Positions 798-40,024 of a stretch of 48,520 nt of DNA are shown piece by piece. The stretch comes from a virus (lineage: Duplodnaviria; Heunggongvirae; Uroviricota; Caudoviricetes). Position 1 is the first letter of the stretch, and every line of letters starts with the position of its first letter. A program made the translations under genes and the position numbers. The stretch lies in IMG/VR virus record IMGVR_UViG_2711768004_000012; one strand, given 5' to 3'. The notes under the pieces were generated by a model, which saw only the letters and a program-made list of their open reading frames with translations, ran no database searches and had not been told where the DNA came from.

Positions 798-3685
798 TAT
801 GCAAGCCTCACAATATAGTTAAATGCGATGTTTTTGACGGTGTTTTCCGCGTTACCAGCAGCGTTAACGGTGATGGTGTGTCCATGTGAACCAATCGCAA
901 CGGAGTGCGTATGAGCACCAATACCGACAGTATGCGCGTGTGCACCTGCAGATGCTGCTGTGCCGGACAGTGAATGGCTATGATTACCATCTATACTGGT
1001 ATTCGCTAACCACCCCGTAGACATACCTACTGAGCCTTGTACACCCCAGGTATTTTGACCTGAGCTTGTATAACCATATTGATAAGTATCTTTAAAAACA
1101 CTGGGGTTAAATCGACGGCCATCTCTATGGCTGTGATTACCAGCTGCATTCGTGCTGCCACTTAAACTATGGGTATGCGCACCAGTGTTATTCGTGGATT
1201 TAGTGCCGTAATCAAACGACGATGTGGTTTTCGTCCCCAAATCCGTACTGGATGCGCTGGCGCTGTGGGTATGCGATTTAATGCCGTCCTGTTCCTGAGA
1301 CAATACGGCCCGACCACTGGCAGGTTTGCCCTTAATCGTCCAGCCACGCATATCAGGGATCACGCCTGACGGATAAGCCGCTGCAAGTTTCGGGTATGCA
1401 GATTTGTCAAAAGCCTGCCCCTGCATCAGGGCATAGCCAGACGGAACGGTATCTGATGGCCACGGGATTGGTGCGCCAGGCGGATAAAACTGCTCTGATG
1501 GCGTATAGAGTGAATAAACTGTACCGTCCGTTAACCCTTCCGGCTTATTAGCAGAATATGCTGGTGACGTATGAATCGTCACGCTGGCATTACTGGTATA
1601 ATCCCATTGAATATTTACACCAGTCGCATAATTTCCGATTGCAACGTAAATATCGTAAGTATCACCAGATGTATTAACCCAGGCAAAATTTGTAAACCCT
1701 GTCAATGTGCGCTGCCATAAAGCACCAGTAATCCCCTTCGGATTACCATTACCTGCACGTAAAACAAGTTCAGATATACCTGCCTGTTGAGGTGACCCCA
1801 CGTTAAATCCAGCGCCACCAATCAACGTAATTGAAACAACAGAACTCGCCTGTGGCATGGTTACCGTTGCTAATTTGAACCAACCAGCACCACCGCTGAA
1901 TGACATTGTTGTTGAGTTAAGCGTACCAATATCTTTCGGCGTCAGTGTTATATCCGCTGAAAGCGCCTTACCATTCACCTTACGGGCAGAAGGTACCCGA
2001 CCATTCGCATTGTCATTAGCTGCTTTCACTGCTTTCGGTGTCGCAGCAAGCGTTTCAGATGTGCTGTTGGTTGCACTACTGAGCTGGACAATTCCTTTTT
2101 GTGCTGTCGTAGCGTCCTGTGCGGTGTATTTCCCGTTAGCCAGGTCATACGCGGCCTTAACGGCTTTTGGCGTTGCCGCCTGTGACTCGGAAGTGCTGTT
2201 AGTCGCACTGCTGAGCTGAACTATCCCTTTCTGTGCTGTCGTTGCATCCTGTGCGGTGTATTTCCCGTTAGCCAGGTCATACGCGGCCTTAGCTGTCTCG
2301 GCGCGCGTTGCCGCGGATTCCGCCGTACTTTTGCTCTGTGCTGCCGCTGCCGCACTGCCAGCAGCCTCTGTCGCCTTCGTGGATGCCGTCGTGGCGCTGC
2401 CCCTCGCTGCTGACGCCTGTCTGGTCGCCTCATCTTTTGAAGCAGACGCAGATGATGCCGATGACGCCGCCGAACTGGCGGACGATGCGGCAGCCGTTTT
2501 TGAGGATTCTGCGCTGGTTTCCGACGCTTTCGCGTTCGTTTCGGATGTCTTCGCTGCGGAAGCAGACCTCGCTGCTGCGCTGGCCTGTTCAGTGGCTTCG
2601 CCAGCCTTCGTTGTGGCTGTTGAAGCGGATGATGCGGCGCTTTCTGCCGATTTTCCGGCGGCGGTGGCACTGACTGCTGCCTCCTCTGCCTTAATGGACG
2701 CCTCACGGGCCGATGATGCAGCTGCTGTCTCAGAGTCTGCCGCAGCTGAGGCGCTCTGTTCCGCTGCCGTTTCAGAAGACTTAGCATTCGTCTCGGACGT
2801 TTTTGCCGCCTTCACGGAATTTCCTGCCGCCGTTGCCGAGGAGGCTGCACTGCTGGCGCTTGTGGAGGCGTTCGTTTCTGATGATTTTGCCGCCTCTTTG
2901 GAGGCCGCCGCATCTCTGGCTGAAGTGGCGGCTTCTGACGCTTTCGTTGTCGCNNNNNNNNNNNNNNNNNNNNNNNNNNNNNNNNNNNNNNNNNNNNNNN
3001 NNNNNNNNNNNNNNNNNNNNNNNNNNNNNNNNNNNNNNNNNNNNNNNNNNNNNNNNNNNNNNNNNNNNNNNNNNNNNNNNNNNNNNNNNNNNNNNNNNNN
3101 NNNNNNNNNNNNNNNNNNNNNNNNNNNNNNNNNNNNNNNNNNNNNNNNNNNNNNNNNNNNNNNNNNNNNNNNNNNNNNNNNNNNNNNNNNNNNNNNNNNN
3201 NNNNNNNNNNNNNNNNNNNNNNNNNNNNNNNNNNNNNNNNNNNNNNNNNNNNNNNNNNNNNNNNNNNCAGATGTGCCGGCATCACTGGCTGACTTCTTCG
3301 CGGCTGCCGTGTTCTGTGCCACCGCGGACGCGTTACGCGCCACCTCTTCCACCATCAGTTCAAAACGGCGCAGAGCCTCCGGACGGGCATCATCCTCCGT
3401 CATGGCACCGAGAAAATCATTCAGCGTACCGGGTCGGGAATCTTCATACACAGTGATGGTCCCGGCATGTGACGGCGGGAATCCTTCCACCAACAGAATA
3501 ACGCTGTACTGACCGTACTCAACGTCCATGCTGTAACGCCCGGCTTCATCCGGATTTTCTGAGGCCAGCGTGTTCACCACCACCGTGGTGCTGTTACGTT
3601 TTGCTTTCAGCTGGATTGTGCAGTTCTGTACCGGTTTTCCTGTGCCGTCTTTCAGTACACCTGAAATCTTTACTGCCATATTCAC
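797..3685 (-). CDS. stf: Side tail fibre protein (Stf-like); interrupted by N run 2954-3267
   Basis: 962 aa ORF; N-terminus [29 protein letters not shown] resembles lambda Stf; long Ala/Ser/Thr-rich central region; C-terminal His/Gly-rich receptor-binding region; followed by tfa. Confidence 0.8.
2040..2300. repeat. Direct tandem repeat inside stf, period about 132 nt (2 copies), encoding a duplicated ~44 aa block
   Basis: Nearly identical DNA, e.g. gtgctgtt...cccgttagccaggtcatacgcggcctta at 2061-2160 and again 132 nt later; protein shows [35 protein letters not shown] twice. Confidence 0.8.
2954..3267. other. Run of N (masked/undetermined, 314 nt) inside stf
   Basis: Literal n characters in the sequence. 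Confidence 1.
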
Positions 3686-3908: not shown

Positions 3909-4491
3909 NNNNNNNNNNNNNNNNNNNNNNNNNNNNNNNNNNNNNNNNNNNNNNNNNNNNNNNNNNNNNNNNNNNNNNNNNNNNNNNNNNNNNNNNNNNN
4001 NNNNNNNNNNNNNNNNNNNNNNNNNNNNNNNNNNNNNNNNNNNNNNNNNNNNNNNNNNNNNNNNNNNNNNNNNNNNNNNNNNNNNNNNNNNNNNNNNNNN
4101 NNNNNNNNNNNNNNNNNNNNNNNNNNNNNNNNNNNNNNNNNNNNNNNNNNNNNNNNNNNNNNNNNNNNNNNNNNNNNNNNNNNNNNNNNNNNNNNNNNNN
4201 NNNNNNNNNNNNNNNNNNNNNNNNNNNNNNNNNNNNNNNNNNNNNNNNNNNNNNNNNNNNNNNNNNNNNNNNNNNNNNNNNNNNNNNNNNNNNNNNNNNN
4301 NNNNNNNNNNNNNNNNNNNNNNNNNNNNNNNNNNNNNNNNNNNNNNNNNNNNNNNNNNNNNNNNNNNNNNNNNNNNNNNNNNNNNNNNNNNNNNNNNNNN
4401 NNNNNNNNNNNNNNNNNNNNNNNNNNNNNNNNNNNNNNNNNNNNNNNNNNNNNNNNNNNNNNNNNNNNNNNNNNNNNNNNNNNNNNNNNNN
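3909..4491. other. Run of N (583 nt) covering the J 3' end and lom 5' end
   Basis: Literal n characters. Confidence 1.
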
Positions 4492-7400
4492 TTTTGGTCA
4501 CAATCACCGTACAGTCGGTGATATTGCCTGCCCCCTGATTGCCTTTCTGGAAAATCTTAAACTCCAGAGTGACGCTACCACCACCACTAGGCATATCAAT
4601 AACTGCACTGTAACTACCGGGAATGGCCCCTTTAGTTTCTCTGGATGCGATTAATACGCCGTTTTTGCGAACTTCAAAACCATAACCCGTGTATCGCGTG
4701 CCTCCTGGGTTATTTCCGCTCCCCGGATCGTCATACGCTATACCGTTAAAAATAATGGGCGGAATAATAATCTGGCGGTCAAAGTTATGATCATCGCTGA
4801 TGGTGACTGTAACCGTACCGTCTGGTGTTTCCGTGTTACCCCACGTACCGACTTTTTTCGGGAAGGCTTTTGATACAGCTTTAACGAAATCCCCTCTGAC
4901 CTGGGTCGCCTCCAGCATGCCCTTAATCGTACAGTTCTGGTTAATCGTGACATTGTTGAGCGTTCCTGAGTTCGCATTCACACTACCACTGATATCCGCA
5001 TTTTTAGCGGTCAGCTTTCCGTCTGATGTCAGGGAAAATACCGGAGGACTGCCACCGCTGGTAATGGCGGGGGCTGTCAGGCGCTTCAGGAACACGTCGT
5101 TCATGAATATCTGGTTGCCCTGCGCCACAAACATCGGCGTTTCATTCCCGTTTGCCGGGTCAATAAACGCGATACGATTGGCGGCAACCAGAAACTGGCT
5201 CAGCTTGCCTTCCTCCGTGTCCTCCATGCTGAGGCCAATACCCGCGACATAATGTTTGCCGTCTTTGGTCTGCTCAATTTTGACGCCCCACATCGCATTC
5301 CATTTATCGTTAGCGTCCTTCCACTCTTTCGAAAACTCATCCAGTCTGCTGGCGTTATCCTCCGTCAGATCAACTTTTTCCAGCAGCTCTTTACCGAGAT
5401 GGGATTCGGTTATCTTGCCTTTGAAAAAATCCAGGTAACCTTCCGCATCATCGCTCGCCCGACCGACGGCCTCCACGAATGCCGATTTGCCAACGGTGTT
5501 CACACTGCGGATATAAAAGTAATAATCATGGCCCGGTTTGATATTGATACTGGCGGCTATCCAGTACAGCCCCGCGCCAAGGTAGCGGGCTGTGGTTTCA
5601 ACCTGCCTGATATCGGTAATCCGCGTTTCCGAGAACCAGAACTCAAACTGTACCGTCGGATCATAAACCGCAAGATGCGGCGTGGCAGTTATCTGAAAAT
5701 AGCCCGGCGTCAGCTCAATCCGCGACGGTGCTACCGGTGCGGCAATCCTGAACGATACCGACGCCGGATCGCCCTGCTGTCCCCAGGCATTTACCGCCCG
5801 GACTGTCAGCGTGTACCGTCCCAGCGCCAGTTGCGTGAAGCGGTATGTGGTTTCCGTCGTCCGGGCCGTGCTGACCAGCCGCTCACTGCCGTCATCCGCT
5901 GCCACGGTCAGGCGAAGCATAAAGCTCACCCCCTTCACCACCTTCGGCGTGTCCCAGCGCGCCAGCACCTGATATTCCCCGCTGTCTGCGGTGACTTCGG
6001 CAGTCAGGTGCTGCACCGCTGGCGGCGTGACACCATTCACCGTGCCGCTCTGGTCGCCGTCAAAGTGCGCCCCGTTATCCACGATGGCTTCTTTTTCCGG
6101 TACATGCTGCACGGCAGTGATGGCATACGTGCCGTCATCGTTCTCACGGATACTCACACAGCGGAACAGGCGCTGGCGCAACGTCGGCAGCTTCAGCCCC
6201 CACACGCTGTATTCAGCAACGCCGTCAGGAACACGGCTCACTTTCACCTTCACGCCGTCGGTGACGGACTGAACCTCCACGCTGACCGGATTGCCACTTC
6301 CGTCAACCAGGCTTATCAGCATGGTACCGGAGGATGGCAGCGTGATTTCACGGTCGAGCGTCAGCGTCCGGGTCTGGCTGTTTACCGCCAGCACGCGCCC
6401 GCCGATGCTGATACCCGCATAGTCATCATCACAGATTTCAATGACATCGCCCGGCACATGGCGAAGCCCTTCTGCGCCCACGCTGAAGTCCACGGTCTGC
6501 GTTTCCAGCAGTTCTGTTTTAATCAGCCACAGCCCGGCGCGGTGTGCCTGCCCCCGGCTGGTACAGCCAAAAGCATCCATCTTCGTGACGTTACGACCGT
6601 AACGGGCAATGGCCTGCGTATCCTCCACAAGCTCTGTCGCCGTCTCCCAGCCGTTATCCGGGTCAATCCAGTTCACCTCAACGGCATTATGGCGGTCNNN
6701 NNNNNNNNNNNNNNNNNNNNNNNNNNNNNNNNNNNNNNNNNNNNNNNNNNNNNNNNNNNNNNNNNNNNNNNNNNNNNNNNNNNNNNNNNNNNNNNNNNNN
6801 NNNNNNNNNNNNNNNNNNNNNNNNNNNNNNNNNNNNNNNNNNNNNNNNNNNNNNNNNNNNNNNNNNNNNNNNNNNNNNNNNNNNNNNNNNNNNNNNNNNN
6901 NNNNNNNNNNNNNNNNNNNNNNNNNNNNNNNNNNNNNNNNNNNNNNNNNNNNNNNNNNNNNNNNNNNNNNNNNNNNNNNNNNNNNNNNNNNNNNNNNNNN
7001 NNNNNNNNNNNNNNNNNNNNNNNNNNNNNNNNNNNNNNNNNNNNNNNNNNNNNNNNNNNNNNNNNNNNNNNNNACACCAGGCCATGTTGTTGCTGTATGC
7101 TGGTTTTAACGTTCCGTCCCAGATACCGCTGTATTGTCGCGTCTGCGGGTTATAGTTCGACGGCACCTGCAGAATGCGCCCGCGAAGATGATAATTACGA
7201 CTCACCTGCTGGCTGCCGAACTGCTCCGAGTCCACCTGTACGCCGACCAGTGCAGTGTTCGGGTAGCACTGTTTCACATCGATGATTTCGGTGTATGACG
7301 ACCAGAGCGTTTTGTTCTGCAGCTGGTCTGTGGTGCTGTCCGGTGTCATCCTGCGCATCCGGATACTGAACGGGCGCGGAGGCAGGTTATCCACCACCAC

Positions 7401-8590: not shown

Positions 8591-8678
8591 NNNNNNNNNN
8601 NNNNNNNNNNNNNNNNNNNNNNNNNNNNNNNNNNNNNNNNNNNNNNNNNNNNNNNNNNNNNNNNNNNNNNNNNNNNNN
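8591..8678. other. Run of N (88 nt) at the K/I junction
   Basis: Literal n characters. Confidence 1.
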
Positions 8679-26345: not shown

Positions 26346-27821
26346 TTAGGAGCGCCAAAAAAAACCTGAAAACAATATAATAACAGGATAAATTTCAAGG
26401 CGACCAAGAATCATAGCTATGCACATTAAATATTTTGCAATGTCATTAAGCACTCCGAATGACGATGCAGTAGCCCCAAAACCTAATCCCATATTATTAA
26501 TACATGCAGCCACTGTTGCAAATGATGTAAGAAAATCATATCCCATACCATTTAACACCAGTATAAAAAACACCGTGAAGAGAGTATAAAGAAAAAAGAA
26601 ACTCCATACAGACCTCATTACACGATCTGTAACTATCTTCCCTCCTACATTTACACTCAACAACGCTCTGGGATGAGAAAGCTGATTTATCTCGTGTTTG
26701 CTTTGTTTGAAAAGTATAAGAAATCGAAGTGACTTAATTCCACCACAGGTTGAACCTATACATCCCCCAAAGAAACTTGACAACAGCAAAAACACTATCG
26801 TGTGCGTGGGCCAGTTTGCATAATCCTGCGTAGCTAAACCATTATCAGTGAGCATGGAGCTGGCAAGAAAAAACGAATGAATAAAACTTCCATGCAAGTC
26901 ATACATACCTATATGCCAGACCTGGAAAGAGGTAACAATGATCACCCCTAAGGCTATTAACAGAAAGAAACGAAGTTCAATATCTCTGATTAAAGGTTTT
27001 ATCGTTTTTCTGCTAATAACAATATACCAAAGAGTGAAGTTGAAAGCCGATAGCAGGGAAAAAGAACCAGCCACCAGCTCAACCAAATAGTTATTAAAAT
27101 ATCCGATACTCTCGCTATGAGTTGAGAAACCACCAAGCGAAACTGTGGAAATCCCGTGACAAATAGCATCAAACAAAGGCATTCCTGCAAGTCTATAACA
27201 GACAATACAAGCAATACCTAATAAAGAATAAGTTATCCACAGTGTCCGTGACGTATCGGCCAGGCGGGGAGTGAGTTTGTCATCCTTAAATGGCCCCGGC
27301 ATTTCTGACTGATAAAGCTTTGCACCACCAATACCCAATAATGGCAATACTGCAACCGCCAGAACAATAACTCCTAAACCACCTATAAAATTTAACTGTG
27401 ACCGATAGTACAAATATGCCCGAGGTAATGAACTAACATCATCAATTACAGTTGCTCCTGTTGTTGTTATTCCAGAAACCCCTTCAAACAGAGCATCAAT
27501 GAACGTTAAATTAAGTTCTGAGTCAATCCATAAAGGGAATGCACTAATAACAGAAAACAAAATCCAAAACATTACAATTATAATAAACCCATCACGGGTA
27601 CGTAATTGAATGCCAGATTTCTTAGTTGTATACCACGCTCCGCCACCAATGCAAAAAAATATAACGAAAGTTATAAAGAAAACGAACAGGCTTTTTTCTT
27701 TATAAAACAATGCTACAACCATTGGTGGCAACATTGAAAGACTATAGAGCCAAACCAGGAACCCACACATATGAGTAACAACTCTTACATGAGATGTATT
27801 CATATCTAAATATTCTTTCAA
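26346..27821 (-). CDS. trkG: TrkH/TrkG-family K+ uptake membrane protein (moron); possible start at MNTSHVRVV (27803)
   Basis: 491 aa polytopic membrane protein matching my recollection of Rac TrkG (MNTSHVRVVTHMCGFLVWLYSL...); markedly AT-rich compared with flanking phage genes. Confidence 0.8.
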   Translation of the reverse strand: MKEYLDMNTSHVRVVTHMCGFLVWLYSLSMLPPMVVALFYKEKSLFVFFITFVIFFCIGGGAWYTTKKSGIQLRTRDGFIIIVMFWILFSVISAFPLWIDSELNLTFIDALFEGVSGITTTGATVIDDVSSLPRAYLYYRSQLNFIGGLGVIVLAVAVLPLLGIGGAKLYQSEMPGPFKDDKLTPRLADTSRTLWITYSLLGIACIVCYRLAGMPLFDAICHGISTVSLGGFSTHSESIGYFNNYLVELVAGSFSLLSAFNFTLWYIVISRKTIKPLIRDIELRFFLLIALGVIIVTSFQVWHIGMYDLHGSFIHSFFLASSMLTDNGLATQDYANWPTHTIVFLLLSSFFGGCIGSTCGGIKSLRFLILFKQSKHEINQLSHPRALLSVNVGGKIVTDRVMRSVWSFFFLYTLFTVFFILVLNGMGYDFLTSFATVAACINNMGLGFGATASSFGVLNDIAKYLMCIAMILGRLEIYPVIILFSGFFWRS

Positions 27822-27940
27822 TTATAACCACCTTGCTGCAATATTATGATTATACTGTATAAAATTTAACTCCTCTTAGATCTTACTTCACTGTTCCTTA
27901 TGAAACAATCATCAAAATGAATCATATTGTAGTTAAGATT

Positions 27941-28262
27941 TTACTTTAAACACTGCTCGGTTATGTATTGCTGAGCACCTTCAAGTTGGGCCTGCATCAT
28001 TACCAGTCGTTCCCGGAGGGTGAAATAATCCCGTTCAGCGGTGTCTGCCAGTCGGGGGGAGGCTGCATTATCCACGCCGGAGGCGGTGGTGGCTTCACGC
28101 ACTGACTGACAGACTGCTTTGATGTGCAACCGACGACGACCAGCGGCAACATCATCACGCAGAGCATCATTTTCAGCTTTCGCATCAGCTAACTCCTTCG
28201 TGTATTTTGCATCGAGCGCAGCAACATCACGCTGACGCATCTGCATGTCAGTAATTGCCGCG
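27941..28262 (-). CDS. Rz i-spanin (5' end in N run)
   Basis: C-terminal ...AALDAKYTKELADAKAENDALRDDVAAGRRRLHIK..., typical Rz coiled-coil; contains embedded Rz1 in the +1 frame. Confidence 0.8.
28000..28185 (-). CDS. Rz1 o-spanin lipoprotein (embedded in Rz)
   Basis: 61 aa MRKLKMMLCVMMLPLVVVGC TSKQ... with lipobox VVGC and a Pro-rich mature region (PPPPPAWIMQPPPDW), fully nested in Rz in another frame. Confidence 0.8.
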   Translation of the reverse strand: MRKLKMMLCVMMLPLVVVGCTSKQSVSQCVKPPPPPAWIMQPPPDWQTPLNGIISPSGNDW

Positions 28263-28512
28263 NNNNNNNNNNNNNNNNNNNNNNNNNNNNNNNNNNNNNN
28301 NNNNNNNNNNNNNNNNNNNNNNNNNNNNNNNNNNNNNNNNNNNNNNNNNNNNNNNNNNNNNNNNNNNNNNNNNNNNNNNNNNNNNNNNNNNNNNNNNNNN
28401 NNNNNNNNNNNNNNNNNNNNNNNNNNNNNNNNNNNNNNNNNNNNNNNNNNNNNNNNNNNNNNNNNNNNNNNNNNNNNNNNNNNNNNNNNNNNNNNNNNNN
28501 NNNNNNNNNNNN
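28263..28512. other. Run of N (250 nt) covering the R 3' end and Rz 5' end
   Basis: Literal n characters. Confidence 1.
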
Positions 28513-30339: not shown

Positions 30340-30936
30340 TTTTCCTCACATATGTCATATAGTAAAGGATTATATATACCGTTGTTTTGGACGCTCAAAC
30401 AGCGAATCAGATCAAATAAAACGCACATTTGTTAACATTTACACAAAGTCTGCGTGGGATATTCTGAAAGAATATCCATAATGTGGAGAGAATCTATTGA
30501 AGTGCATGGTGCCGGGTGCCTCCCGGTGAACAAAATGTTCGTGATACCTGTCGGCGACAGAAAAGGTTAATGGTATCACCCCACCGCACAGGGGGATTCA
30601 CCATGCAGGAGTTTTCTTAGCAAACTCACTGCGCGCCCGGCAACTCCCAACCACATAAAATGCGGAGTTTGTGGCATTTATGCATATAACTCGCAGGAAT
30701 TATCTTAAAAAACTGATGTCGATCCGGATTAAAAAGAAGCAGGTCATCATCAGATGACTGGAAAAAAGGAAAACAAAAAATACTCATCATACAGTTTTGA
30801 TTGCAGGGATGAGCCTGCTATGCACAATATGCAGAATATAAGCAAGATAAAAATATGCAGGCATATTATTTCGGATCTTGTTATTAACACAACCTTTTTA
30901 ATAATCATTTGGCATACAATAAACCAGCCCAAAAAG

Positions 30937-31383: not shown

Positions 31384-31926
31384 TCAAGCCATTTTCTCAG
31401 CAAATGATTCACGCATGGGAATATATAGGGCATACTCAGCAACAGCTAACCAATTAGCAATCCGTTTTTCGCATGTGCTAAAACACCACTCTGGGTGTGC
31501 ATCATTTAGCAATTCAGCCATTTTGCGCTTAGTCATCCCCCGCCCTTCATAGCGTTGCCGGAGAATGCAAATCAATCCTGGATGCTCTGCCAGCACCTCA
31601 CTTATGACTCGATCAATACATAACGCCTCTGCATCAGTACAATGCGCCAGCCAGCTCTTTTGCTTGCCGTTGATCATCTCTCGCAAAAACGCTTCCAGCT
31701 CAGCTTTCTCTATTCCCGCTTTTTTCATTCTGCGCAGGGCTTCATTAATGGCTGTTTTCGTCAGTTTTTTGGATGCCAACAACTGATTGAACATATTCCC
31801 TGACCTGCCACCGCCAATATACGACCAGCGCCCCCACATACGTAGTTTTCCCTGAATCCAGACACTTTCCAGCGTGGTGAGGCGAAGGTGTTCTCCGCTT
31901 TTTCCTGTATTCGTTGGGTAAATCAT
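31384..31926 (-). CDS. Late-gene antiterminator Q-like protein
   Basis: 180 aa ORF at the end of the nin region, immediately upstream of an intrinsic terminator and the lysis cassette; sequence is not lambda Q-like, so the call rests on position and size. Confidence 0.55.
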   Translation of the reverse strand: MIYPTNTGKSGEHLRLTTLESVWIQGKLRMWGRWSYIGGGRSGNMFNQLLASKKLTKTAINEALRRMKKAGIEKAELEAFLREMINGKQKSWLAHCTDAEALCIDRVISEVLAEHPGLICILRQRYEGRGMTKRKMAELLNDAHPEWCFSTCEKRIANWLAVAEYALYIPMRESFAEKMA

Positions 31927-32213
31927 AAATGACCTTTCTTTCTCCAGATTTCTTGTGTGCGAAAAACCCCTTCAGCATGCATCAGGCGCAATTCTTCTTT
32001 GGTGTAATCGCTGGTTTTTACCCGCCCGTCGATTAGATCGTGGCATGAGCTACAGGCTATCGCCGCCTGCATATCATGTGGTTTTGTCGCTGTTCCGCAC
32101 GTCCCCGCCAGCCTGTAATGCGCCAGCACAGAGGTTTCGGGATTGTGATTGCAGTAGCCAGGGATTCTGATCTGGCACATCTGGCCTTTAGCCGCTTTAC
32201 GTAAATTCACCAT
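31923..32213 (-). CDS. YbcO-like (DUF1364) nin-region protein, Cys/His metal-binding
   Basis: 96 aa with CQIRIPGYCNHNPETSVLAHYR...IACSSCHDLIDGR, resembling DLP12 YbcO-type proteins. Confidence 0.55.
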   Translation of the reverse strand: MVNLRKAAKGQMCQIRIPGYCNHNPETSVLAHYRLAGTCGTATKPHDMQAAIACSSCHDLIDGRVKTSDYTKEELRLMHAEGVFRTQEIWRKKGHL

Positions 32214-32812
32214 TACGCAAACTCCAGTAGTTGTGCGGCCACATTTTCAACTTCCTCCTGAGAGGAGAATTTACGGAACAGAATCCAGTTCCACAGCACA
32301 TTCAGTACAGATTTATAAACCTGCTGAAACTCGACTTCGTCCATATTCGCAAAAGCGATGGATTTTGCCCGACGCCCACGGCTACCGTCCGGATAAATAT
32401 GCTCGGTGTAAAATCCGGCCTGAATGGTTACCCACTCGCGGAAAGCCTCAAACGACTTTAGCAACGCCGTATCCCGGGTTCTACGAGTCGCAACGGTGTT
32501 AAGGTATTGCTCTGCGGCATCACTCAGGGCTGGCGTGTGTTCCCGACCAACTGATTCGCACAGGTAATCAACGAAACCAGACAGCAGTTCTCGTTCGCGA
32601 GGCGTGATCGCCCCACCGACCGGAGTCCAGTAATCGAATCCCAGTTGCAGGAGTTTGAAAAAACGCTTGTGGAATGCGTAGTTACGCACACGCTTAAAGT
32701 CTGCGTGTATCCACTCACCTATTTTGATTTGATGCAGAAAATCGCAACTCTCCGGCGTCGCCGGGAGAAGTAAACCAGAAGAGGTTTGTTTGACCAGTTG
32801 TATATGCGCCAT
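32213..32812 (-). CDS. Nin-region hypothetical protein (DUF1367-like)
   Basis: 199 aa ORF, 1-nt overlap with the downstream gene; phage backbone composition. Confidence 0.5.
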   Translation of the reverse strand: MAHIQLVKQTSSGLLLPATPESCDFLHQIKIGEWIHADFKRVRNYAFHKRFFKLLQLGFDYWTPVGGAITPRERELLSGFVDYLCESVGREHTPALSDAAEQYLNTVATRRTRDTALLKSFEAFREWVTIQAGFYTEHIYPDGSRGRRAKSIAFANMDEVEFQQVYKSVLNVLWNWILFRKFSSQEEVENVAAQLLEFA

Positions 32813-33092
32813 TTCTCAATCTCTCGATGGCGCAGCGCAGCAGATGCCAGTTGTTCAGGCTGACGAATAAAGTATAAATAAACTGGCTATGGTGTAAAGC
32901 CCCACATAGCATGAACAAACACTACATATCAAATAGCTGGTACAAGGATAGAAATACGACACTTATTATTAAAAACGATTAGATAAATTACATTTTAATG
33001 TTATGCAAAAGTTCTTTTTTATCATAACATTTCAATAAAAGCATTACAGATGCAATCATCCCGTCATCATCAATTATTTAAGGTGGTTAAAC

Positions 33093-33179
33093 ATGGAAAA
33101 TAACAAGTTCGCACATCTCGCTCCTTTTTTATCCGTAATCCTTTTCGCTTGTTGTTTTATATGGGCATTATTTTTATAA
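33093..33179 (+). CDS. Candidate small hydrophobic peptide (28 aa) MENNKFAHLAPFLSVILFACCFIWALFL
   Basis: ATG preceded by strong SD AAGGTGG at 33080-33086 with 6-nt spacing; single predicted TM helix; inside the AT-rich island. Confidence 0.35.
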   Translation: MENNKFAHLAPFLSVILFACCFIWALFL

Positions 33180-33587
33180 AGTAGCCACATGATAAGTTGC
33201 TGGAATCATATTTCCCACTCAAGTCATTAACATTTGATAAGATATATCTAAAAGGACGCCTTTACATTATTTATGCGTATATAATTTATTTATATACACA
33301 GTAAAGGTATCCTGGGAAAATATTTATCGTTAAAAAATACATCATAAATAATTAAGCTGAAATTTCAGAACACAACTAATACACACAATAAGGTTCAGTA
33401 ACAGTAATCTATGTGGACTACATCGAGATTTTTTGATTAAACTTTAATAACTTATTCCTAACACACAGAATGCATAAACTAAAAGTAAAACAAATAGTTA
33501 TACGAAAAACAACCATATTTATTCTATCTTCTCCTCTAATCAACATATCAATTATGTGTTTCATAACAGCTTGACATAACCCTCCAA

Positions 33588-33610
33588 AAGATGCATTTTT
33601 AATGCATGTT
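33588..33610 (+). promoter_or_regulatory. NsrR-type operator-like inverted repeat upstream of the yeaR-like gene
   Basis: aagATGCATttttaATGCATgtt: first half AAGATGCATTT is identical to the NsrR half-site consensus as I recall it; ATGCAT-based 11-1-11 palindrome; a perfect TTGACA lies at 33571-33576. Confidence 0.5.
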
Positions 33611-33625
33611 TTGGAGGAGGTGGTT

Positions 33626-33964
33626 ATGACACACAAGAGAATTCCTAAAGATTGGGTAATCAAACGCTCAACTCCGTTCTTCACAAAAGAGAACGTACCT
33701 TCAGCGTTATTAACACATCATAATACAGCAGCAGGTGTTTTTGGGCAGTTGTGCGTAATGGAAGGCACTGTAACATATTATGGTTTTACTGATGAGAATG
33801 CTACTGAACCGGAGATAAAAGTAGTCATTAATGCTGGCGCTTTTGCAACAAGCCCACCACAATACTGGCACCGTGTTGAACTAAGCGATGATGCTCAGTT
33901 TAATATTAACTTTTGGGTCGCTCCAGACTTTTCGGGCGAAAAAGTCTATAGCACCAAAAAATAG
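33626..33964 (+). CDS. YeaR-like DUF1971 protein (moron)
   Basis: 112 aa MTHKRIPKDWVIKRSTPFFTKENVPSALLTHHNTAAGVFGQLCVMEGTVTYYGF...FNINFWVAP parallels E. coli YeaR (…RSTPFWNK…MHGAVKYLGY…YFNIDFFVAP); strong SD GGAGGAGGTGG upstream. Confidence 0.7.
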   Translation: MTHKRIPKDWVIKRSTPFFTKENVPSALLTHHNTAAGVFGQLCVMEGTVTYYGFTDENATEPEIKVVINAGAFATSPPQYWHRVELSDDAQFNINFWVAPDFSGEKVYSTKK

Positions 33965-33993
33965 ATGATCATATTAAAAATGCTTTAACAGTC

Positions 33994-34031
33994 AGACCCG
34001 GCAGGGCTATCCCCGACGGGTCTCATTTTTG
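33994..34031 (+). terminator. Candidate terminator after the yeaR-like gene
   Basis: agacccg...cgggtct inverted repeat followed by cattttt; the loop is long (16 nt), so strength is uncertain. Confidence 0.4.
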
Positions 34032-34584
34032 TAAATATATTGGTTCTACATTGACAGGAGACTTCAACCATAAGAAGTAATCTGAATACTTGAGCAATAA
34101 ATTTACTTAAGATTAATGAGCGCACCTTGCCGGACAAAGATAAACCAAGGTAACACCTTTTTTCTAGCCAGTATGTAATCAATCAGAAAGCCGCTCCATA
34201 AGAACAACAGCAAGACAATAAATTGCCATTACAGCCGCAATAGCCAGCGCACATTTGAGAACCAGCACGACAACCCCCTGTATTAGACGCACACCAGTCC
34301 TGATAAATATGAGGCTGTCTCGTCAGTGATTCAATACAACTATTGGGTATAGTTTCTGTGATTTTATTCTGTAGAAATGGAACACAACAACCAGTCACCA
34401 CCAGCACTTCCTTAAATGCTCTAAGTCAGAAACAAGCCAACATTTTAGTCCGCTTTGAGCGATCTGCAGACATTGCTAGCAGCCTTCTGTGTGAATTCTC
34501 AGGGAGCAGGTCGGCATAGCATCACGTTGAGGCTCTTACCCTACTTGTTCACACCAACCCTAACTCCACAGACTGATTCATAAA

Positions 34585-35586
34585 TTAGTAATCTGCGTGT
34601 TTCGCACTTTTCAGAAATGCTTTCATATTTTCATTAGGTCGCTCAATTTCGAAGTTACTTCCATATAACTCTTGTAATTTTGGCCATAACTTACTTAATA
34701 ACCCTCTCCTGCGATAAAATGGATGTATCCAAACGGTAGATAGGTACGGAGAATTTGCATTTGAATTGTTTATTGTGACCAGCCCAACTAAACATTGTCG
34801 ATAACCACTATTATCCATTGATTGTATTTCTTCGACGAATGGATACGCGATTACATCAGTCCAACCATGATCGGTTGTATCCCATTGCATTCCGTCATGA
34901 CATTCCTTCGACTGATAGCGGCGTAAAGCTACACACGCGAGCTTTTGCCAATCTGGAGAATTAATTGTGATCTCTTCATCGTATGACGCGCCTATTGGAG
35001 CGGGTATTGGTCTGATTAATCCAGCATGGCATTCATCATAGAACTTCATGTTTCCCTCAGAAACGTTGTGTACGTTGGGTTGCTCCATGTGTGCGCCATT
35101 CAAAAATAGCTCTGATAGTAGTGTATCTACACTGTAATCTTTATTGATTATTGTCGGCTTAGAGTTTTTCTTATTAAGGCCGCGAGTAACGATTTTTTGA
35201 TCAATGTTAACAACATGGAATAATCCGTCGGGGAGGCTAGCGAACCACGATGGGGCATCGGACCAGAATAGCATGCCTTTTGTACTTCTTAAGAGTTTAA
35301 TTAAGTTAATACAAGCTTCTTCACTAGTCTTGCCGTTGATGCGAAGTATGTTAGGACTAAAGTAATATTCATCCATATCAGGGAATGCAGCTTCGCAAAA
35401 CTCCTGTACATAATTTAGCACCTGGATTCTACAGAGATCATCATAGCTGGTAATAACTAAGGGGGTATCTTCATTACTATTATGATTATCAATAATGCAA
35501 TCTATAGCGAGACTTACTGCTTTGCGTATCACTTCAGTTGAATCTAACGACTCTAAAAATTTTGTCTTTCGTGTGCGAATATCCAT
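34585..35586 (-). CDS. Hypothetical protein with GNAT-like acetyltransferase C-terminal domain
   Basis: 333 aa; C-terminus ...CLVGLVTINNSNANSPYLSTVWIHPFYRRRGLLSKLWPKL... fits GNAT motif A (beta strand then R-x-x-G-x-hydrophobic); AT-rich; 15 nt downstream of the preceding gene (operon). Confidence 0.5.
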   Translation of the reverse strand: MDIRTRKTKFLESLDSTEVIRKAVSLAIDCIIDNHNSNEDTPLVITSYDDLCRIQVLNYVQEFCEAAFPDMDEYYFSPNILRINGKTSEEACINLIKLLRSTKGMLFWSDAPSWFASLPDGLFHVVNIDQKIVTRGLNKKNSKPTIINKDYSVDTLLSELFLNGAHMEQPNVHNVSEGNMKFYDECHAGLIRPIPAPIGASYDEEITINSPDWQKLACVALRRYQSKECHDGMQWDTTDHGWTDVIAYPFVEEIQSMDNSGYRQCLVGLVTINNSNANSPYLSTVWIHPFYRRRGLLSKLWPKLQELYGSNFEIERPNENMKAFLKSAKHADY

Positions 35587-35601
35587 GTATGACCTGCGCT
35601 A

Positions 35602-36562
35602 TTAAAATTCATGAATGAACGGTTTGTCATCTGGTTGCAAAATGGTGGTTTTATTCGTTGCTACATTTAAACTGTTGTAGAGCATAATTGCCAGGTTCGA
35701 TGCATTTTCAATCAGCGTTTCAAGATCCTGGTCTGTAATCACTACGAGGTTCCCTTCTTTATCCTTTCCACCACGATGCACTAAGTGATTTCGATTGAGG
35801 GTTGCCAATTCAATAGCTTCTATCGGACAGTCTTTTTGTACTTTTATATCGAATGTAGCTTCATAGCGGTCGATTACCTTTTTAGTGCTATGCCAGCTTG
35901 CACTGATCAAGTGTTCCTTGATTGACCTGATTAGCTCTCCCCTAATTTTCTCGATGGGTTCACCCTTGAAAGGCAACGCAGCAATATCTTTGCTTACTTT
36001 AAATTCAGTCTTACCTTTTTCTATACAATTGGCTATGTAGACATCATCTTTCTCTATAGAATTAATGAATAGCTCAACATAAAGCGTTTCCAAAGCTGTA
36101 ATAACATTCGTGTAGAGCAAACTAAGCAAGTGGTTTTTTTGCTGTTGTTCAGTTTTATCTTTTGCAAGTTTTTTTATTTTATCGATATTATCAATGAATT
36201 TTAAATACGGATTACCGGAAGACGTTACAGCGTCGTAGATATCATCATCGTACCAATCATCTATATTATTTGAGTTTCCAGACCAGTCAAAACATTGTGT
36301 TTGTAATTCATCTACTAATTCCTCAATATACTCAGATTTAACATATTGACCGAAGATGGATTGTAGTTCTTCGCTCGCATCATACGGCCCGCCATATATG
36401 TAAGCATAGCCACCTTCTCTACTTTCATACGGACAAGCATTTGCCGGATCTTCAAAGTTTTCAAAGAACCAGTTTTTCATTACTTCGAGTTGATCTTTTT
36501 TGCTTATGTATTTTAAAGATTTTAGTGGAACTTTCTTTCCATTAACCTCGAAAACAATTTTC
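35602..36562 (-). CDS. Hypothetical protein with HEPN-like R-N-x3-H motif (probable GTG start; ORF track extends to 36693)
   Basis: About 320 aa; C-terminal region ...ELATLNRNHLVHRGG... contains R-N-H-L-V-H (Rx4H); SD AAGGGAG before GTG AAA ATT; AT-rich; first gene of a two-gene operon. Confidence 0.45.
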
Positions 36563-36762
36563 ACGATGTAACGCTCCCTTGTATCAATTGCGCAACTATT
36601 ATACCACAGCGAAATACAGGGCATAACCTGCCTCCTTAAACTAACATACCATGAGCCAGCAATGTCCGCTATTGGCACAAAGCGGACAACCACGCTAGCT
36701 CTCCCCTGTGCCAGAAAAATGTCAATTTACATATGAACTAATGCTCTTTGATCTAGTAACGT

Positions 36763-37179
36763 CTATAAATACCGAAGATTTCCTTGATAAAATGCCAGTA
36801 CACGTTTCATAACTTCACTCTTCCGGCACTCGCGACAGATTATGTTCTGACGCCTGTCATAGCGGCGTATTTCTCCGTCTGGTAATGACCAGATAAGGTC
36901 AGGATCAACCACAACCGTTTTTTTCACCTTTGCCCTGGATAGTTTTTTGCGGGCGTTTTTCCAATCCTTACGAGCCTGTTCAGACGGGAATAACCCATAG
37001 CCAGAGTTGTATACATCGCCACTGGCAACCAACTCTCTGGCAAGAATGCTCATCAGATATCTTGTCGCACCTGTCTTGGCCTCCAGTTGCCTTAACGTCT
37101 CGCGCCCACTCTGGCGTACCAACTCAACAACCTGCTCCTTAATTTTTTCACGCTCTTCCTGTGTAAAAACTTTTGCCAT
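36763..37179 (-). CDS. Hypothetical protein with HTH-like region and CxxC (CRECRK)
   Basis: ORF starting MAKVFTQEEREKIKEQVVELVRQSGRETLRQLEAKTGATRY...; backbone GC content; lies between the replication module and the AT-rich cassette. Confidence 0.45.
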   Translation of the reverse strand: MAKVFTQEEREKIKEQVVELVRQSGRETLRQLEAKTGATRYLMSILARELVASGDVYNSGYGLFPSEQARKDWKNARKKLSRAKVKKTVVVDPDLIWSLPDGEIRRYDRRQNIICRECRKSEVMKRVLAFYQGNLRYL

Positions 37180-37194
37180 AAGCGCCTCCGGCAA

Positions 37195-37956
37195 TCACTT
37201 TTCCGACACAATACGACTGGAGGAATCGACAATCTGTCGGACAATATCCCGGTGCTTGTTCAGCTCCCGCAGCGCGGCGCAGACTCGCTCCCACTTCTGG
37301 ACATGATTTTTCGCCCGACGCAGTTCGCGGTTTGCCATATGCAGCGATGGTAAAACTAGGTCATCCGCTTGCGTTTCAGTAAACGATGGCAGCGACTGCA
37401 CAATGTCCGCCACAGTTTCTGTTTTAATATCTTCCTGTGTTGCCGCTTCCTGTACTGGTAACGCAACACCGGCTGGCTGAGGAAAGGCTTTACCATCAGT
37501 TTCCGCTACCGATGCAGCTTTCGGCTCTGCTGGTAAATTATCGCCCGGCATGCAGTAACGAAATTTACTGTTCTGGTTTACGCGAATCAGGCGTCCTTTG
37601 CTGATTGCCATTGCCAGCGTTGAAGCAACTTTGCGGGATGTTGTACCGAACAGCGTAGCCAGTTCATCCGCCGTTTGTGGTCCGCGTTGTTCAATCGTCG
37701 CGGTTAAATCGCACTCTGAGATTTTCACTACAGTTGCCGTGGTGGTTTCTTCCGGCAGTTCTGCCTGCATTGGCTGTTCCTGCTGAACGTTGTTATCAGC
37801 CACACGCCAGGTGTACGCGCTTTTATCAACGAAACCAGCTTTTTTCAGTTCCCATAGTTCGTTCAGCACTTCTTCACGACTGATATCAAGTCGCGCAGCA
37901 AGTTCTATGGATGTGGCTTTTCCCATTGCTTTCAGTGCGTCAAAAACAGTCTCCAT
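37195..37956 (-). CDS. YdaW-like replication-module protein (winged-helix N-terminus)
   Basis: [43 protein letters not shown]...; downstream of the DnaC-like gene as in Rac. Confidence 0.5.
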
Positions 37957-37978
37957 AAAAATTTCCTCCCGGTAAAAA

Positions 37979-38725
37979 TTACTTCTCAATTCCTGGCTGG
38001 ACGACATTCGGACGCCAGCTCTCCCAGTTAAAATTCACCCATCGCCCGCCGTTCATGGTCATGCGATCCATAATCCGCTCGCCGAGCAATGTTTTCATGG
38101 CCTCATAGTTCAGGTTTGTCAGCATCCCCACGCTGCGCATCGACGCTGTCCGGCGATCAACAATCTGGTGCAGCACCACCTGCTCGTTTTTCGTCTCGCG
38201 CTGAATGCCAATTTCATCAAGAACCAGCAGATCCACTTCGCATAGTTCCCGCAAAAATTTTTCGCCTGACTGCCCATCGTCATAGCTGGCGTGCAGGGCA
38301 CTCATAACATCAGCCACGGTAACCACAATCACTGTCTGACCGTCTTTCAGCAGGCGATTCCCGATAGCTGCCGCTAAGTGGTTCTTCCCGGTACCAGGTT
38401 TTCCGCTGAACGCAAAATTTGTACACCCGGTCATCAGTTCATCAGCGATGGATTTCGCCTGACTCAACGCGTATCGCTGCGCTTCGTTCTGCACCTGGTA
38501 ATTCGAAAACGAGCATTTGCGGTGCAATGGCTGGATGCCAGAGCGATTCAGAATTTTTTCCACCCGCAACTGACGATTCTGACGGTTGATCTCCTCACAA
38601 CGTTTCTGGCCTTCGGAAAGTTGCCACTCGCGCCACTCCGCTACCGTCTTGAATGGCGCGGTTACATGTGACGGGGCCAGTCTGCGGATACGTTCAAGAA
38701 CGTCGCCTGTCGCAATATTTTTCAT
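37979..38725 (-). CDS. DnaC/IstB-like helicase loader ATPase (YdaV-like)
   Basis: 248 aa with Walker [18 protein letters not shown] and Walker B LLVLDEIG. Confidence 0.8.
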
Positions 38726-38731
38726 GGTCAG

Positions 38732-39589
38732 TTACCCCCTGAAGCCTGGCGGGATCGCACTATCCGGTAACGAGACGGTGTTAACCTGTCGGAGTAACGT
38801 CTCAGGTCGAACACCTTTCGGCGCGAACAAGCCCTGGTATTCATTGGCGATGCTGTGTCGAATCACCTGCTCAGGTGAAAAACCCTGCTGGCGGAATTTT
38901 TCCAGCTCCCGTATCGCCCCGTTAGCGCCCTGCTCCGTTCGAATCGGTTTTCGCAATGCCTGGCGAAATTCAACCCACTCACGCCAAAGCGAGACAGAAA
39001 TCCAGTTCGGCAAAGCAATATCCAGAGGGTCAAACTTTTTGACACCTCGATTCCCCCGGGGGGGATTTAGGGGGGGATCTGTTTTTAGATCTTTATCTGT
39101 ATCTTTATTAGTTGCCTTTGTGTTGACATCATGTTCAAACACCACTTCAACATCTGTTTGAACACCTGTTAAATTTCTCTCTTGTTTTGTTTGAACATCT
39201 GCTTCCTTTCTGCTTCTTCTGGCCTGAACAGATGCTTTTCCTGCGGCTGATTTTTTGGTTAATTTTTCCCTGACTGATGCCAGATCTTCCTCAATCCGAA
39301 GATGCACCCATTCCTCGCCGTTATCGCAAAAAAACTCCTGCAAGGATGGTTCAACATCAGCCCATCGCTCGTTAGTCAGACGGGCAATTTTTGCCAGCCT
39401 GTTTTTAGGTATTGGCTTTCCTGTTTGCCAGTAATTGAACATCAGCAACAAATACGCACCATGCTCCTCTGCTGACAAATGCATGGTGTCAGCCAGGTAA
39501 TCAGCTATGTACAGTTGCATGTATGGTAATGCGGCCATAATTGCCCCGTATGATGCTGCCCGGTGGCTTAGAATAAGCACAAACAGCAT
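38732..39589 (-). CDS. Replication initiation protein (YdaU/DUF1376-like; start may be at MAALPYMQLY, 39538)
   Basis: ORF upstream of the DnaC-like gene; N-terminus MAALPYMQLYIADYLADTMHLSAEEHGAYLLLM is typical of DUF1376 phage replication proteins as I recall them. Confidence 0.55.
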   Translation of the reverse strand: MLFVLILSHRAASYGAIMAALPYMQLYIADYLADTMHLSAEEHGAYLLLMFNYWQTGKPIPKNRLAKIARLTNERWADVEPSLQEFFCDNGEEWVHLRIEEDLASVREKLTKKSAAGKASVQARRSRKEADVQTKQERNLTGVQTDVEVVFEHDVNTKATNKDTDKDLKTDPPLNPPRGNRGVKKFDPLDIALPNWISVSLWREWVEFRQALRKPIRTEQGANGAIRELEKFRQQGFSPEQVIRHSIANEYQGLFAPKGVRPETLLRQVNTVSLPDSAIPPGFRG

Positions 39590-39601
39590 GGAAACTTTTG
39601 C

Positions 39602-40024
39602 TTAATGAACAATGACAGAATCGTCGGAAGACCCGCCGCCGCTGAAATGCGCTTTCCGGTAAACGGCTTGGACTGCATCATCATGCGCATCAATTGCCGT
39701 ACTTAACGCTTCCTGCGCCGCCAGTAATGCACGGCGTTCCAGGGTATCGAAGATGCAGAGTCGGTGACGCAGCTCGCGCGGAAGGATTGCCAGAATTGCT
39801 GGGATCAGCTTCTGAATTTTTTCTCTTTGCGTTTTCGTTTCACCTTTCAACCAACGGTGATAGATATTCTGCTGATTATTCCAGTCCTTGCCTGGTACCA
39901 GGGGCAATTCGCCGCCCCCCTGGCGCAGATATTCTTCAGTAATGGCATTGGCTACCCATGCCTGCCCTTTTTCGGCTGCCAGGGCTAACAACACTGACTC
40001 GATGTGCTCATGCTTGATTTTCAT
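39602..40024 (-). CDS. YdaT-like protein (second gene of the cro-side operon)
   Basis: 140 aa ORF immediately downstream of the Cro-like gene with 4-nt overlap; Rac-type ydaS-ydaT arrangement. Confidence 0.55.
   Translation of the reverse strand: MKIKHEHIESVLLALAAEKGQAWVANAITEEYLRQGGGELPLVPGKDWNNQQNIYHRWLKGETKTQREKIQKLIPAILAILPRELRHRLCIFDTLERRALLAAQEALSTAIDAHDDAVQAVYRKAHFSGGGSSDDSVIVH

Follow-up and report, generated by a model that had tools for sequence, protein, structure and literature searches.

The DUF977–DUF1367 slot of an Escherichia coli Rac-type prophage: DS-33 cargo and hairpin repeats at its boundaries

An accessory-gene slot between the replication and nin-like genes

The viral record IMGVR_UViG_2711768004_000012 (48,520 nucleotides; hereafter the window, meaning this whole stretch) is an Escherichia coli Rac-type prophage. 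The subject of this analysis is an AT-rich interval of about 4 kb (32813–36762), bounded exactly by the start codon of a DUF1367 gene and the stop codon of a DUF977 gene. The left anchor, DUF1367 (32213–32812, minus strand; Pfam DUF1367, E = 6e-98), starts the nin-like/late-regulation block DUF1367–YbcO–Q-like. The right anchor, DUF977 (Ren-like/LygF; 36763–37194, minus strand; Pfam DUF977, E = 3e-31; PHROG 142, ‘Ren-like exclusion protein’), is the last gene of the replication block, which also contains DUF1627, ydaV and ydaU. A 4982-bp query comprising the island and both flanking genes matches chromosomal segments at 100% identity, annotated trkG-...-DUF1133-DUF1364-DUF1367-[island]-DUF977-DUF1627-ydaV-ydaU-ydaT-...-sieB-kilR-racC-recE, and intR/ttcA adjoin related copies of the prophage. 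The flanking gene families agree with the placement between nin-like and replication modules given in a preliminary description of this DNA. All the items that it listed inside the island are present as well, namely a small hydrophobic open reading frame (ORF), a YeaR-like gene with a palindrome and a terminator-like hairpin, an ORF-poor stretch, and a pair of HEPN-like and GNAT-like genes.

The GC content of the interval is 0.376, compared with 0.470 for the window, 0.491 for the genes of the left flank (31384–32812) and 0.500 for the right flank (36763–40024). No other segment of 3950 bp is lower; equally low segments account for 0.3% of the total, and every one of them overlaps 32813–36762. 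GC at third codon positions is 0.31–0.36 in the island genes and 0.47–0.61 in the flanking genes, and this contrast, together with the GC profile, bears out the sharp drop in composition described earlier. Runs of N, 1611 bases in total (2954–3267, 3909–4491, 6698–7073, 8591–8678 and 28263–28512), give spurious very low values in the profile. Another low-GC stretch (26500–28500, GC 0.29–0.41, partly N-masked) lies near TolA-like genes annotated in the matching genome.

The content of the interval is highly variable among related prophages. The sibling set consists of 80 IMG/VR loci whose DUF1367 is 97–100% identical to that of the window, 56 of which also hold an upstream anchor (DUF977 or DUF1627). 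Between the anchors, these 56 loci contain 31 interval types of 2.7–8.5 kb with 80 protein clusters. The anchors themselves are conserved, DUF1367 at no less than 97% identity (in 80/80 sibling loci) and DUF977 at 83–100%. The exact arrangement of the window is found in 13 of 5426 complete E. coli genomes, the set to which the genome counts below refer.

Scanned with PADLOC, the sibling slots hold at least nine known or candidate defence systems. The occupants include IetA/IetS (E = 9e-143 and 9e-302), PD-T7-3 (E = 3.5e-168), a dGTPase (E = 8.7e-145) with PDC-S32, HEC-06 (DUF262), Rst_3HP (Hp1-3), AbiLi, Dcm with a type II restriction enzyme (REase_II), and Dcm with a PtuA/HEC-04-like ATPase. 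PADLOC returned no match for roughly half of the 30 largest representatives scanned, and some slot versions carry seemingly metabolic genes (a transporter, a LysR-type regulator, ChaC-like and major facilitator superfamily proteins), as judged on N-terminal sequences alone. With 31 versions between conserved anchors and known defence systems inside, the comparison of Rac-like prophages supports the interval as an accessory-gene slot, or prophage defence hotspot, of Rac-type lambdoid prophages, in line with the cargo hotspot proposed at the outset.

Two further occupants are described here for their gene content. One sibling Rac-like slot (L064, 5713–8083) carries a CARF-ADA-like adenosine deaminase, a 184-residue protein without a match and a ThsA-like SIR2 protein, a three-gene cargo with no correspondence to a complete known system in PADLOC. 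The equivalent slot of E. coli A29 (L100, 1534–3923) carries AbiH and WP_000982358.1 (DS-37 of the DefensePredictor study), followed by the 300-bp closing element described below and hokD.

The pieces of the island are distributed unequally. Over the 31 interval types, 32813–33183 (including a 28-residue ORF) is covered in 23, 33184–34160 (the YeaR-like module) in 7–8, 34160–34480 in 11–15, and 34484–36680 in one. In the E. coli genomes, the YeaR-like module is present in 467, the element at 34165–34470 in 1718, and the HEPN/GNAT cassette in 209. Because these frequencies differ, the island consists of separate pieces brought together. It is a mosaic of four independently distributed segments, and the exchangeable cassette is only about 34472–36663 (~2.2 kb). 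Of the separately acquired island of the preliminary description, the variable cargo slot stands and the one ~4-kb insertion does not. That the low GC marks a single foreign element (a transposon or integrative island), inserted once as one block into the Rac backbone, is extremely improbable. Such a block would fit the sharp fall in composition at both gene boundaries and the existence of a 46-nt imperfect inverted repeat, but the segment frequencies are far apart, the repeat spans only 34435–36700 and leaves the rest of the island outside, and no transposase, integrase or target-site duplication was found within the interval.

We consider it highly probable that the interval is a Rac-type slot that reaches from the lambda ren position (DUF977) to the first nin-like gene (DUF1367), is composed of four independent pieces, and exchanges its cargo within hairpin boundaries. 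The four pieces are the HEPN/GNAT cassette, an approximately 300-bp closing element with a probable 29-residue membrane peptide, the YeaR-like (DUF1971) moron, and a semi-conserved AT-rich spacer. The slot resembles the hotspots of PMC9122126 and Vassallo et al. 2022 (PMC9519451), in which conserved phage genes flank a short region that swaps known and unknown defence systems. Rst_3HP and PD-T7-3 are common to the Rac slot and those hotspots, and the P2 Z/fun locus also has the hairpins described below, whereas the phage family and the genome position differ. A literature search for a description of the Rac hotspot found nothing relevant. A prophage slot with anti-phage cargo is an ordinary, well-understood feature, and the finding as stated is ordinary because its main occupant is already published and was validated experimentally in 2026. 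The slot is nonetheless a rich, easily mined reservoir (about 80 protein clusters in 31 versions).

The DS-33 cassette

The main cargo comprises a HEPN gene and, directly downstream on the same strand after a 15-nt gap, a GNAT-like gene. The HEPN protein is identical to DS-33A (WP_014639476.1) at 320/320 residues, with the GTG start read as Met, and the GNAT-like protein is identical to DS-33B (WP_000354965.1) at 332/333, the one difference being Pro289 in the window versus Leu289 in the DS-33 clone that was tested. Table S6 of DeWeirdt et al. (Science 2026; PMC13092281) lists these two accessions under the working id ‘GNAT’ as defensive, equal to DS-33. Gene order, spacing and the E. coli accessory-genome source are likewise the same. 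Judged by sequence identity, this cassette of HEPN and GNAT-like genes is the previously published anti-phage system DS-33. The main text of PMC13092281 appears not to describe the prophage slot, solo occurrences of either gene, or flanking repeats. The window’s own proteins gave no match with PADLOC 2.0.0, which is older than DS-33.

The mobile unit (34558–36623, minus strand) contains its own promoter, the HEPN gene, the 15-nt gap, the GNAT-like gene and a 27-nt tail, and is delimited by Aeromonas homology, which begins and ends at these positions, starting at the cassette’s own promoter. It is confined to one of the 31 interval types, and the 209 genomes that carry it do so at an identity of at least 99%. 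DS-33A (35602–36564, minus strand; 320 residues) is a predicted effector with an N-terminal HEPN_RES_NTD1-like domain and a C-terminal RiboL-PSP-type HEPN domain bearing the motif R258-N-H-L-V-H263. DS-33B (34585–35586, minus strand; 333 residues) has a C-terminal GNAT fold and an N-terminal region of ~200 residues without a match. Upstream of the HEPN gene, inside the mobile unit, is an extended −10-like sequence (TGTGGTATAAT; 36598–36608, minus strand); the Aeromonas counterpart reads TGTGATACAAT and agrees at 9/11 positions, the site lying inside the homologous block.

An in-frame ATG with an upstream AAGGAGG is located at 36622–36624 (minus strand), 20 codons ahead of the GTG that is annotated as the HEPN start, and a 340-residue version of the protein exists in some databases. 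The 320-residue start is more likely because Aeromonas has TTG in place of the ATG, the GTG is conserved, the Shine-Dalgarno sequence is similar, and homologues have 310–326 residues. In the Aeromonas loci (L013–L015, 4420–7904), DS-33 is found at 87% and 78% protein identity beside Thoeris-like genes (SIR2/STALD and the TIR protein ThsB), and in one Aeromonas genome it also adjoins class 1 integron-type resistance genes. A 138-residue gene upstream of Aeromonas DS-33 was considered as a DUF977 homologue, which would have indicated co-transfer of the backbone, and was rejected (E = 0.48).

DS-33A has the four-helix up-down HEPN fold and the Rx4-6H motif (R258-NHLV-H263), and residues R258, H263 and R264 do not vary among 44 homologues, the most distant of which have 26% identity. 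Its Pfam score for PF18870 is 22.2 bits, under the gathering cutoff of 27.4, and there is no PF18735 match; many relatives carry precomputed matches to PF18870 and/or PF18735. On these matches, membership in RiboL-PSP HEPN/HEPN_RES_NTD1 holds for the family, not from the window sequence alone. DS-33B likewise has the GNAT fold, with an Acetyltransf_1 score of 19.9 bits (cutoff 20.7). At the acetyl-CoA motif A (R/Q-x-x-G-x-G/A) it reads RRRGLL, in which the Arg and Gly are kept and Leu takes the final position; R292 is found throughout the family. A phmmer search against the PDB sequences returned no match for either protein.

The published plaque data define which gene is required for defence. 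In Table S7 of PMC13092281, the log10 protection conferred by wild-type DS-33 is 3.8 against T7, 3.3 against T3, 4 against Bas67, 5 against Bas26 and 0.8 against T5. Deletion of the GNAT gene leaves equal or greater protection, deletion of the HEPN gene reduces it to about 0, and the R258A substitution reduces it to 0.8 on T7. As shown by these authors with a DS-33A identical to that of the window, protection against T7, T3, Bas26 and Bas67 needs the HEPN gene and Arg258, and the GNAT gene is dispensable. DS-33A resembles HepS of the Gifsy-1 prophage of Salmonella (Sargen et al., Nature 2026; PMC13043305), a single HEPN-domain defence protein encoded in an accessory slot after lambdoid replication genes. 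For HepS, too, the Rx4-6H motif is needed, there is no obligate partner, and expression is non-toxic.

The preliminary description had presented the two genes as a pair. They are adjacent here, as it said, but they do not form an obligate two-gene system, given the single occurrences and the published GNAT deletion. HEPN homologues without a GNAT-like gene within 5–6 kb are found in Aeromonas, Dickeya and an E. coli satellite-like island; GNAT-like homologues without HEPN within the same distance are found in a Shewanella phage, in Marinomonas (next to an Abi_2 gene) and in a Serratia integrative and conjugative element. In the Aeromonas island beside the Thoeris genes, the two genes and their promoter occur together. 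The occurrence of both genes singly in several lineages argues that they are not a toxin–antitoxin or toxin–immunity pair, in which one product would neutralise the other and stabilise the prophage. Such a pair is very unlikely: the construct deleted for GNAT is viable and defends equally or better, the construct deleted for HEPN has no phenotype, and DS-33A was cloned with its native promoter with no toxicity problem reported. Neither the obligate co-occurrence of a type II toxin–antitoxin system nor a toxin that cannot be kept without its partner is seen.

Our conclusion is that DS-33A, like HepS, is a HEPN effector sufficient in itself, and that DS-33B has a passenger or accessory role and does not serve as an antitoxin. 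In the mechanism that we propose, the HEPN_RES_NTD1 domain most likely keeps DS-33A silent until an infection cue. DS-33A would then act as a metal-independent ribonuclease (RNase), and cleavage of RNA would stop phage growth by the logic of abortive infection, as in HepS. The GNAT-fold protein DS-33B would ride in the cassette without being needed for the measured defence. Two observations run counter to this account. The main text of PMC13092281 appears to report neither RNase activity nor abortive infection for DS-33, and the tested DS-33B carries Leu289, so that its dispensability may not hold for the allele of the window. Pro289 (codon at 34720–34722, minus strand) is invariant in 41 homologues and immediately precedes a conserved FYRRRG segment. 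The published result may stem from a defective allele, and because the tested clone has Leu289 at an invariant Pro position, the dispensability of the GNAT gene is open to a recheck with the common allele, which is that of the window.

Hairpin repeats at the cargo boundaries

A repeat search identified a 46-nt imperfect inverted repeat (34435–34480 and 36655–36700) that brackets the DS-33 cassette, and the cores of the repeat are two hairpins, A and B. Hairpin A (GTCCGCTTTGTGCCAATAGCGGAC; 36664–36687, minus strand) is the 5′ limit of the exchangeable cassette and lies 75 nt beyond the stop codon of DUF977, or about 78 nt when counted from where the tblastn match ends. It is the only exact match in the window, with none in shuffled sequences, and as single-stranded DNA it folds with −9.3 kcal/mol (z = −4.4). 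Hairpin B (GTCTGCAGATCGCTCAAAGCGGAC; 34448–34471, minus strand) is the 3′ limit. The hairpin core is GTGCCA/TCGCTC.

The same architecture recurs in other loci. Hairpins are present in 12 of the 31 interval types, where nearly all cassette junctions have one, and in one sibling locus four hairpins separate three cargo units. Over all loci examined, there are 89 cases of A and then B on the same strand, at distances of 293–5832 nt, and 34 of B and then A, 24 of which have exactly 18 nt between the two hairpins. The flanks of the two hairpins are unequal. The 162 A sites have 54 families of upstream flank versus 90 of downstream (cargo) flank, and the 121 B sites have 84 families on the cargo side and 53 on the backbone side, so that at B it is the cargo side that varies and the backbone that is conserved. 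The second most frequent upstream flank comes from P2-like phages, where it is the 3′ end of their gene for tail-fibre assembly. P2 itself has A after gene G and B before gene FI, with the genes of the Z/fun region in between.

The breakpoints can be placed within the hairpins. Three families of cargo are found behind Rac-like as well as P2-like flanks, and two such pairs align over 975 nt at 94.5% and over 1853 nt at 99.2% identity. The 5′ half of the hairpin is backbone-specific (GCTTTG versus GCTCTG), and identity of the cargo starts directly after the loop GTGCCA. When folded, the B–18 nt–A junction gives a single long, imperfect hairpin (−18.7 kcal/mol, z = −6.4). In the window (36609–36663) and in many unrelated cargos, hairpin A is followed by a semi-conserved leader of ~45 nt, RTTGCTnnCATCATGGTATGTTAGTTTAAnGGGAGCAGGT, which resembles an extended −10 promoter with a ribosome-binding site that the slot would supply. 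The sequence TGGCAC, present on the reverse strand of hairpin A, was considered as part of a sigma-54 promoter; this was rejected on inspection, as the −12 element reads GGAC and not TTGC.

This hairpin-framed cargo, common to the Rac slot and the classical P2 Z/fun hotspot, is the less ordinary part of the finding. In our model, the two related hairpin repeats, A at the 5′ end of the cargo and B at its 3′ end, would be the places where recombination exchanges it. The phage would keep the half of each hairpin next to its backbone, and the half next to the cargo would move with the cassette; we infer an enzyme or pathway that recombines the hairpins. In its strongest form, A (GTCCGCTnnGTGCCAnnAGCGGAC) and B (GTCCGCnnnTCGCTCAnAGCGGAC) would be the recombination sites of a cassette-exchange system so far undescribed, or described only for P2 in 2004, an explanation that we hold tentatively and regard as rather doubtful. 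Mostly defence cargo would be bounded by A and B and stacked as A–cargo–B–18 nt–A–cargo–B, and crossover inside the hairpin loop would move it between the hotspots of Rac-like lambdoids, P2-like phages and Klebsiella phages. By its title, the paper of Nilsson et al. from 2004 deals with site-specific recombination at hot spots of P2, and it may anticipate part of this model. The flanking hairpins are mentioned neither in Rousset 2022 nor in the 2026 NAR study of P2/P4 hotspots, and a literature search for the hairpin sequence found nothing relevant.

By analogy, the arrangement resembles integron cassette arrays with their attC sites, in which promoter-poor cargo units are separated by an imperfect palindromic junction, crossover takes place at a short conserved core, and half-sites either stay or travel. 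Unlike integrons, the slot has no IntI integrase in it or next to it and no GTTRRRY core, and its cargo often comprises several genes, lies in either orientation and brings its own promoters; attC identity of the hairpins was rejected on the first two grounds. If real, the exchange system would be a phage-borne, integrase-less analogue of the integron. A second likeness is to the promoter-early stem-loops (PeSLs) of T4-type phages, which, according to Arbiol et al. 2010, reportedly flank novel ORFs in hyperplastic regions and were proposed to serve modular shuffling. Like PeSLs, the boundary would combine a stem-loop with a promoter motif, hairpin A being followed by the semi-conserved leader TGGTATGTT...AGGAGG; sequence and phage group differ.

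Several observations count against dedicated recombination sites. No recombinase is linked to the hairpin repeats. By the pattern used, no hairpin was found in 19 of the 31 interval types, whose DUF977 alleles are more divergent, and the slot therefore does not always have them. Taken singly, the hairpins differ in stability and are not always stable. Covariation in the stem of hairpin A is weak (83.6% paired versus 82.6% in shuffles), in part because most positions of the stem were fixed by the search pattern. When one genome per species was scanned, the A motif turned up in several Enterobacterales, and many times per genome in Alphaproteobacteria, with a second hairpin (ATGTCCGCTTTACCCCCGAAAGCGGACAT) ~20 nt upstream, a multi-copy distribution that fits a general repeat resembling repetitive extragenic palindromes (REP) or bacterial interspersed mosaic elements (BIME) rather than a dedicated cassette site. 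The alphaproteobacterial loci with the motif include metagenome-assembled genomes of Pseudolabrys, Xanthobacteraceae, Hyphomicrobiales and Methyloceanibacter (L223–L302), and the core of their REP/BIME-like repeat would be that of the boundary hairpins in enterobacterial phages. Rfam gave no match on seven hairpin-bearing loci.

We give a nearly even chance to the hairpins being ordinary intergenic repeats (REP/BIME-like), or stem-loops that terminate transcription or stabilise mRNA between transcription units, with no dedicated cassette machinery. The boundaries would then be marked only as general homologous recombination (RecA, or Rac RecET/lambda Red-type) resolves at short conserved sequences. 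Besides the alphaproteobacterial copies, the missing recombinase gene and the weak covariation, ordinary repeats would accord with the conserved backbone block that follows B and the promoter-like leader that follows A, and with the RecE encoded by Rac. Rac also encodes RecT, and RecE-type recombination works on short homologies. However, the B-to-A spacing in arrays is fixed at 18 nt, crossovers in different backbones all fall within the 6-nt loop core, the stems are not followed by a T-run, and one 24-mer is conserved across unrelated phages, all of which argue for sequence-specific recognition. Canonical intrinsic terminators at A and B were rejected because of the missing T-run. If the hairpins are true recombination sites, as in the exchange model, they would explain the shuttling of defence systems between unrelated phages and would provide a sequence tag for locating cargo slots without gene annotation.

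The YeaR-like module, the spacer and the closing element

The other segments of the island lie outside the DS-33 cassette. The DUF1971/YeaR-like gene (33626–33964 with the start assigned by the annotation pipeline PGAP, plus strand; 112 residues; Pfam DUF1971, E = 2.6e-26) belongs to a separate moron module at about 33184–34160, and its product is 41% identical to K-12 YeaR. The promoter region (33571–33610, plus strand) contains a TTGACA (33571–33576) and an NsrR-type palindrome AAGATGCATTTTTAATGCATGTT (33588–33610), placed between the TTGACA and the start codon. The palindrome has one mismatch (22/23 positions) to AANATGCATTTNAAATGCATNTT, the inverted repeat of the half-site AANATGCATTT, which is the E. 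coli NsrR half-site consensus as cited in PMC6391409. It is the sole match in the window, with 0 in 100 shuffles, and a similar palindrome lies upstream of K-12 yeaR. After the gene is a terminator-like hairpin with a T-run (33994–34030, plus strand; AGACCCG...CGGGTCT then CATTTTTGT; minimum free energy −19.4 kcal/mol, z = −2.1).

As predicted from these motifs, the module is a self-contained moron with its own promoter, NsrR-type operator and terminator, which agrees with the regulatory site and terminator of the preliminary description. Because of these three elements, the YeaR-like gene is probably switched on by nitric oxide or nitrosative stress, and NsrR would bind the operator and be released in a nitric oxide-dependent manner. 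In E. coli, the yeaR-yoaG operon is regulated by NsrR and NarL. The prophage module resembles it in the DUF1971 protein and in the NsrR-type palindrome just upstream; unlike the operon, it lacks yoaG, is a moron with its own terminator, and has an operator closer to the consensus than that of the chromosomal gene.

The proximal AT-rich spacer (32813–33183; GC about 0.30), present in 23/31 interval types, is semi-conserved backbone and not cargo. It includes a candidate 28-residue hydrophobic ORF (MENNKFAHLAPFLSVILFACCFIWALFL; 33093–33179, plus strand) with an upstream AAGGTGG, which PGAP does not annotate. The ORF is 100% conserved in the loci that hold it and has no Pfam or NCBIfam family. 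The small membrane-peptide ORF of the preliminary description is present in that it is hydrophobic and preceded by a Shine-Dalgarno sequence; its status is that of a candidate, unproven as a gene.

The gap without a long ORF, previously given as roughly 550 bp without a convincing ORF, extends over 620 bp (33965–34584). No long ORF is indeed found there, but the gap contains a conserved element, a likely 29-residue gene and the cassette-boundary hairpin B. The element (34160–34480, minus strand), which closes the cargo slot, is the one covered in 11–15 of 31 interval types; its annotation is ‘none’ in every one of the 1718 E. coli genomes that carry it. In other Rac-like prophages (L100 and L002), it lies ~200 nt upstream of hokD. 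It contains a candidate 29-residue hydrophobic ORF ((V)LVLKCALAIAAVMAIYCLAVVLMERLSD; 34179–34268, minus strand) with AGGGGG/AGGAGG 6 nt upstream of a GTG start. In an alignment of 15 variants, this frame has six synonymous and six conservative changes, and the other two frames have 2/9 and 1/10. The pattern is suggestive of a small membrane protein, which has no known family in Pfam or NCBIfam. A Cys-rich 74-residue ORF (34183–34407) was rejected as a gene, with frame changes of 2 synonymous/9 non-synonymous or 1/10 and no family match. Over the whole of 32813–36762, Rfam gave nothing at E ≤ 1 except two chance-level matches. Immediately left of the Q-like gene, the small RNA STnc100 matches above the Rfam gathering score (30450–30636, minus strand; 86.6 bits, E = 5e-18), and this RNA is also found in one sibling locus (L033).

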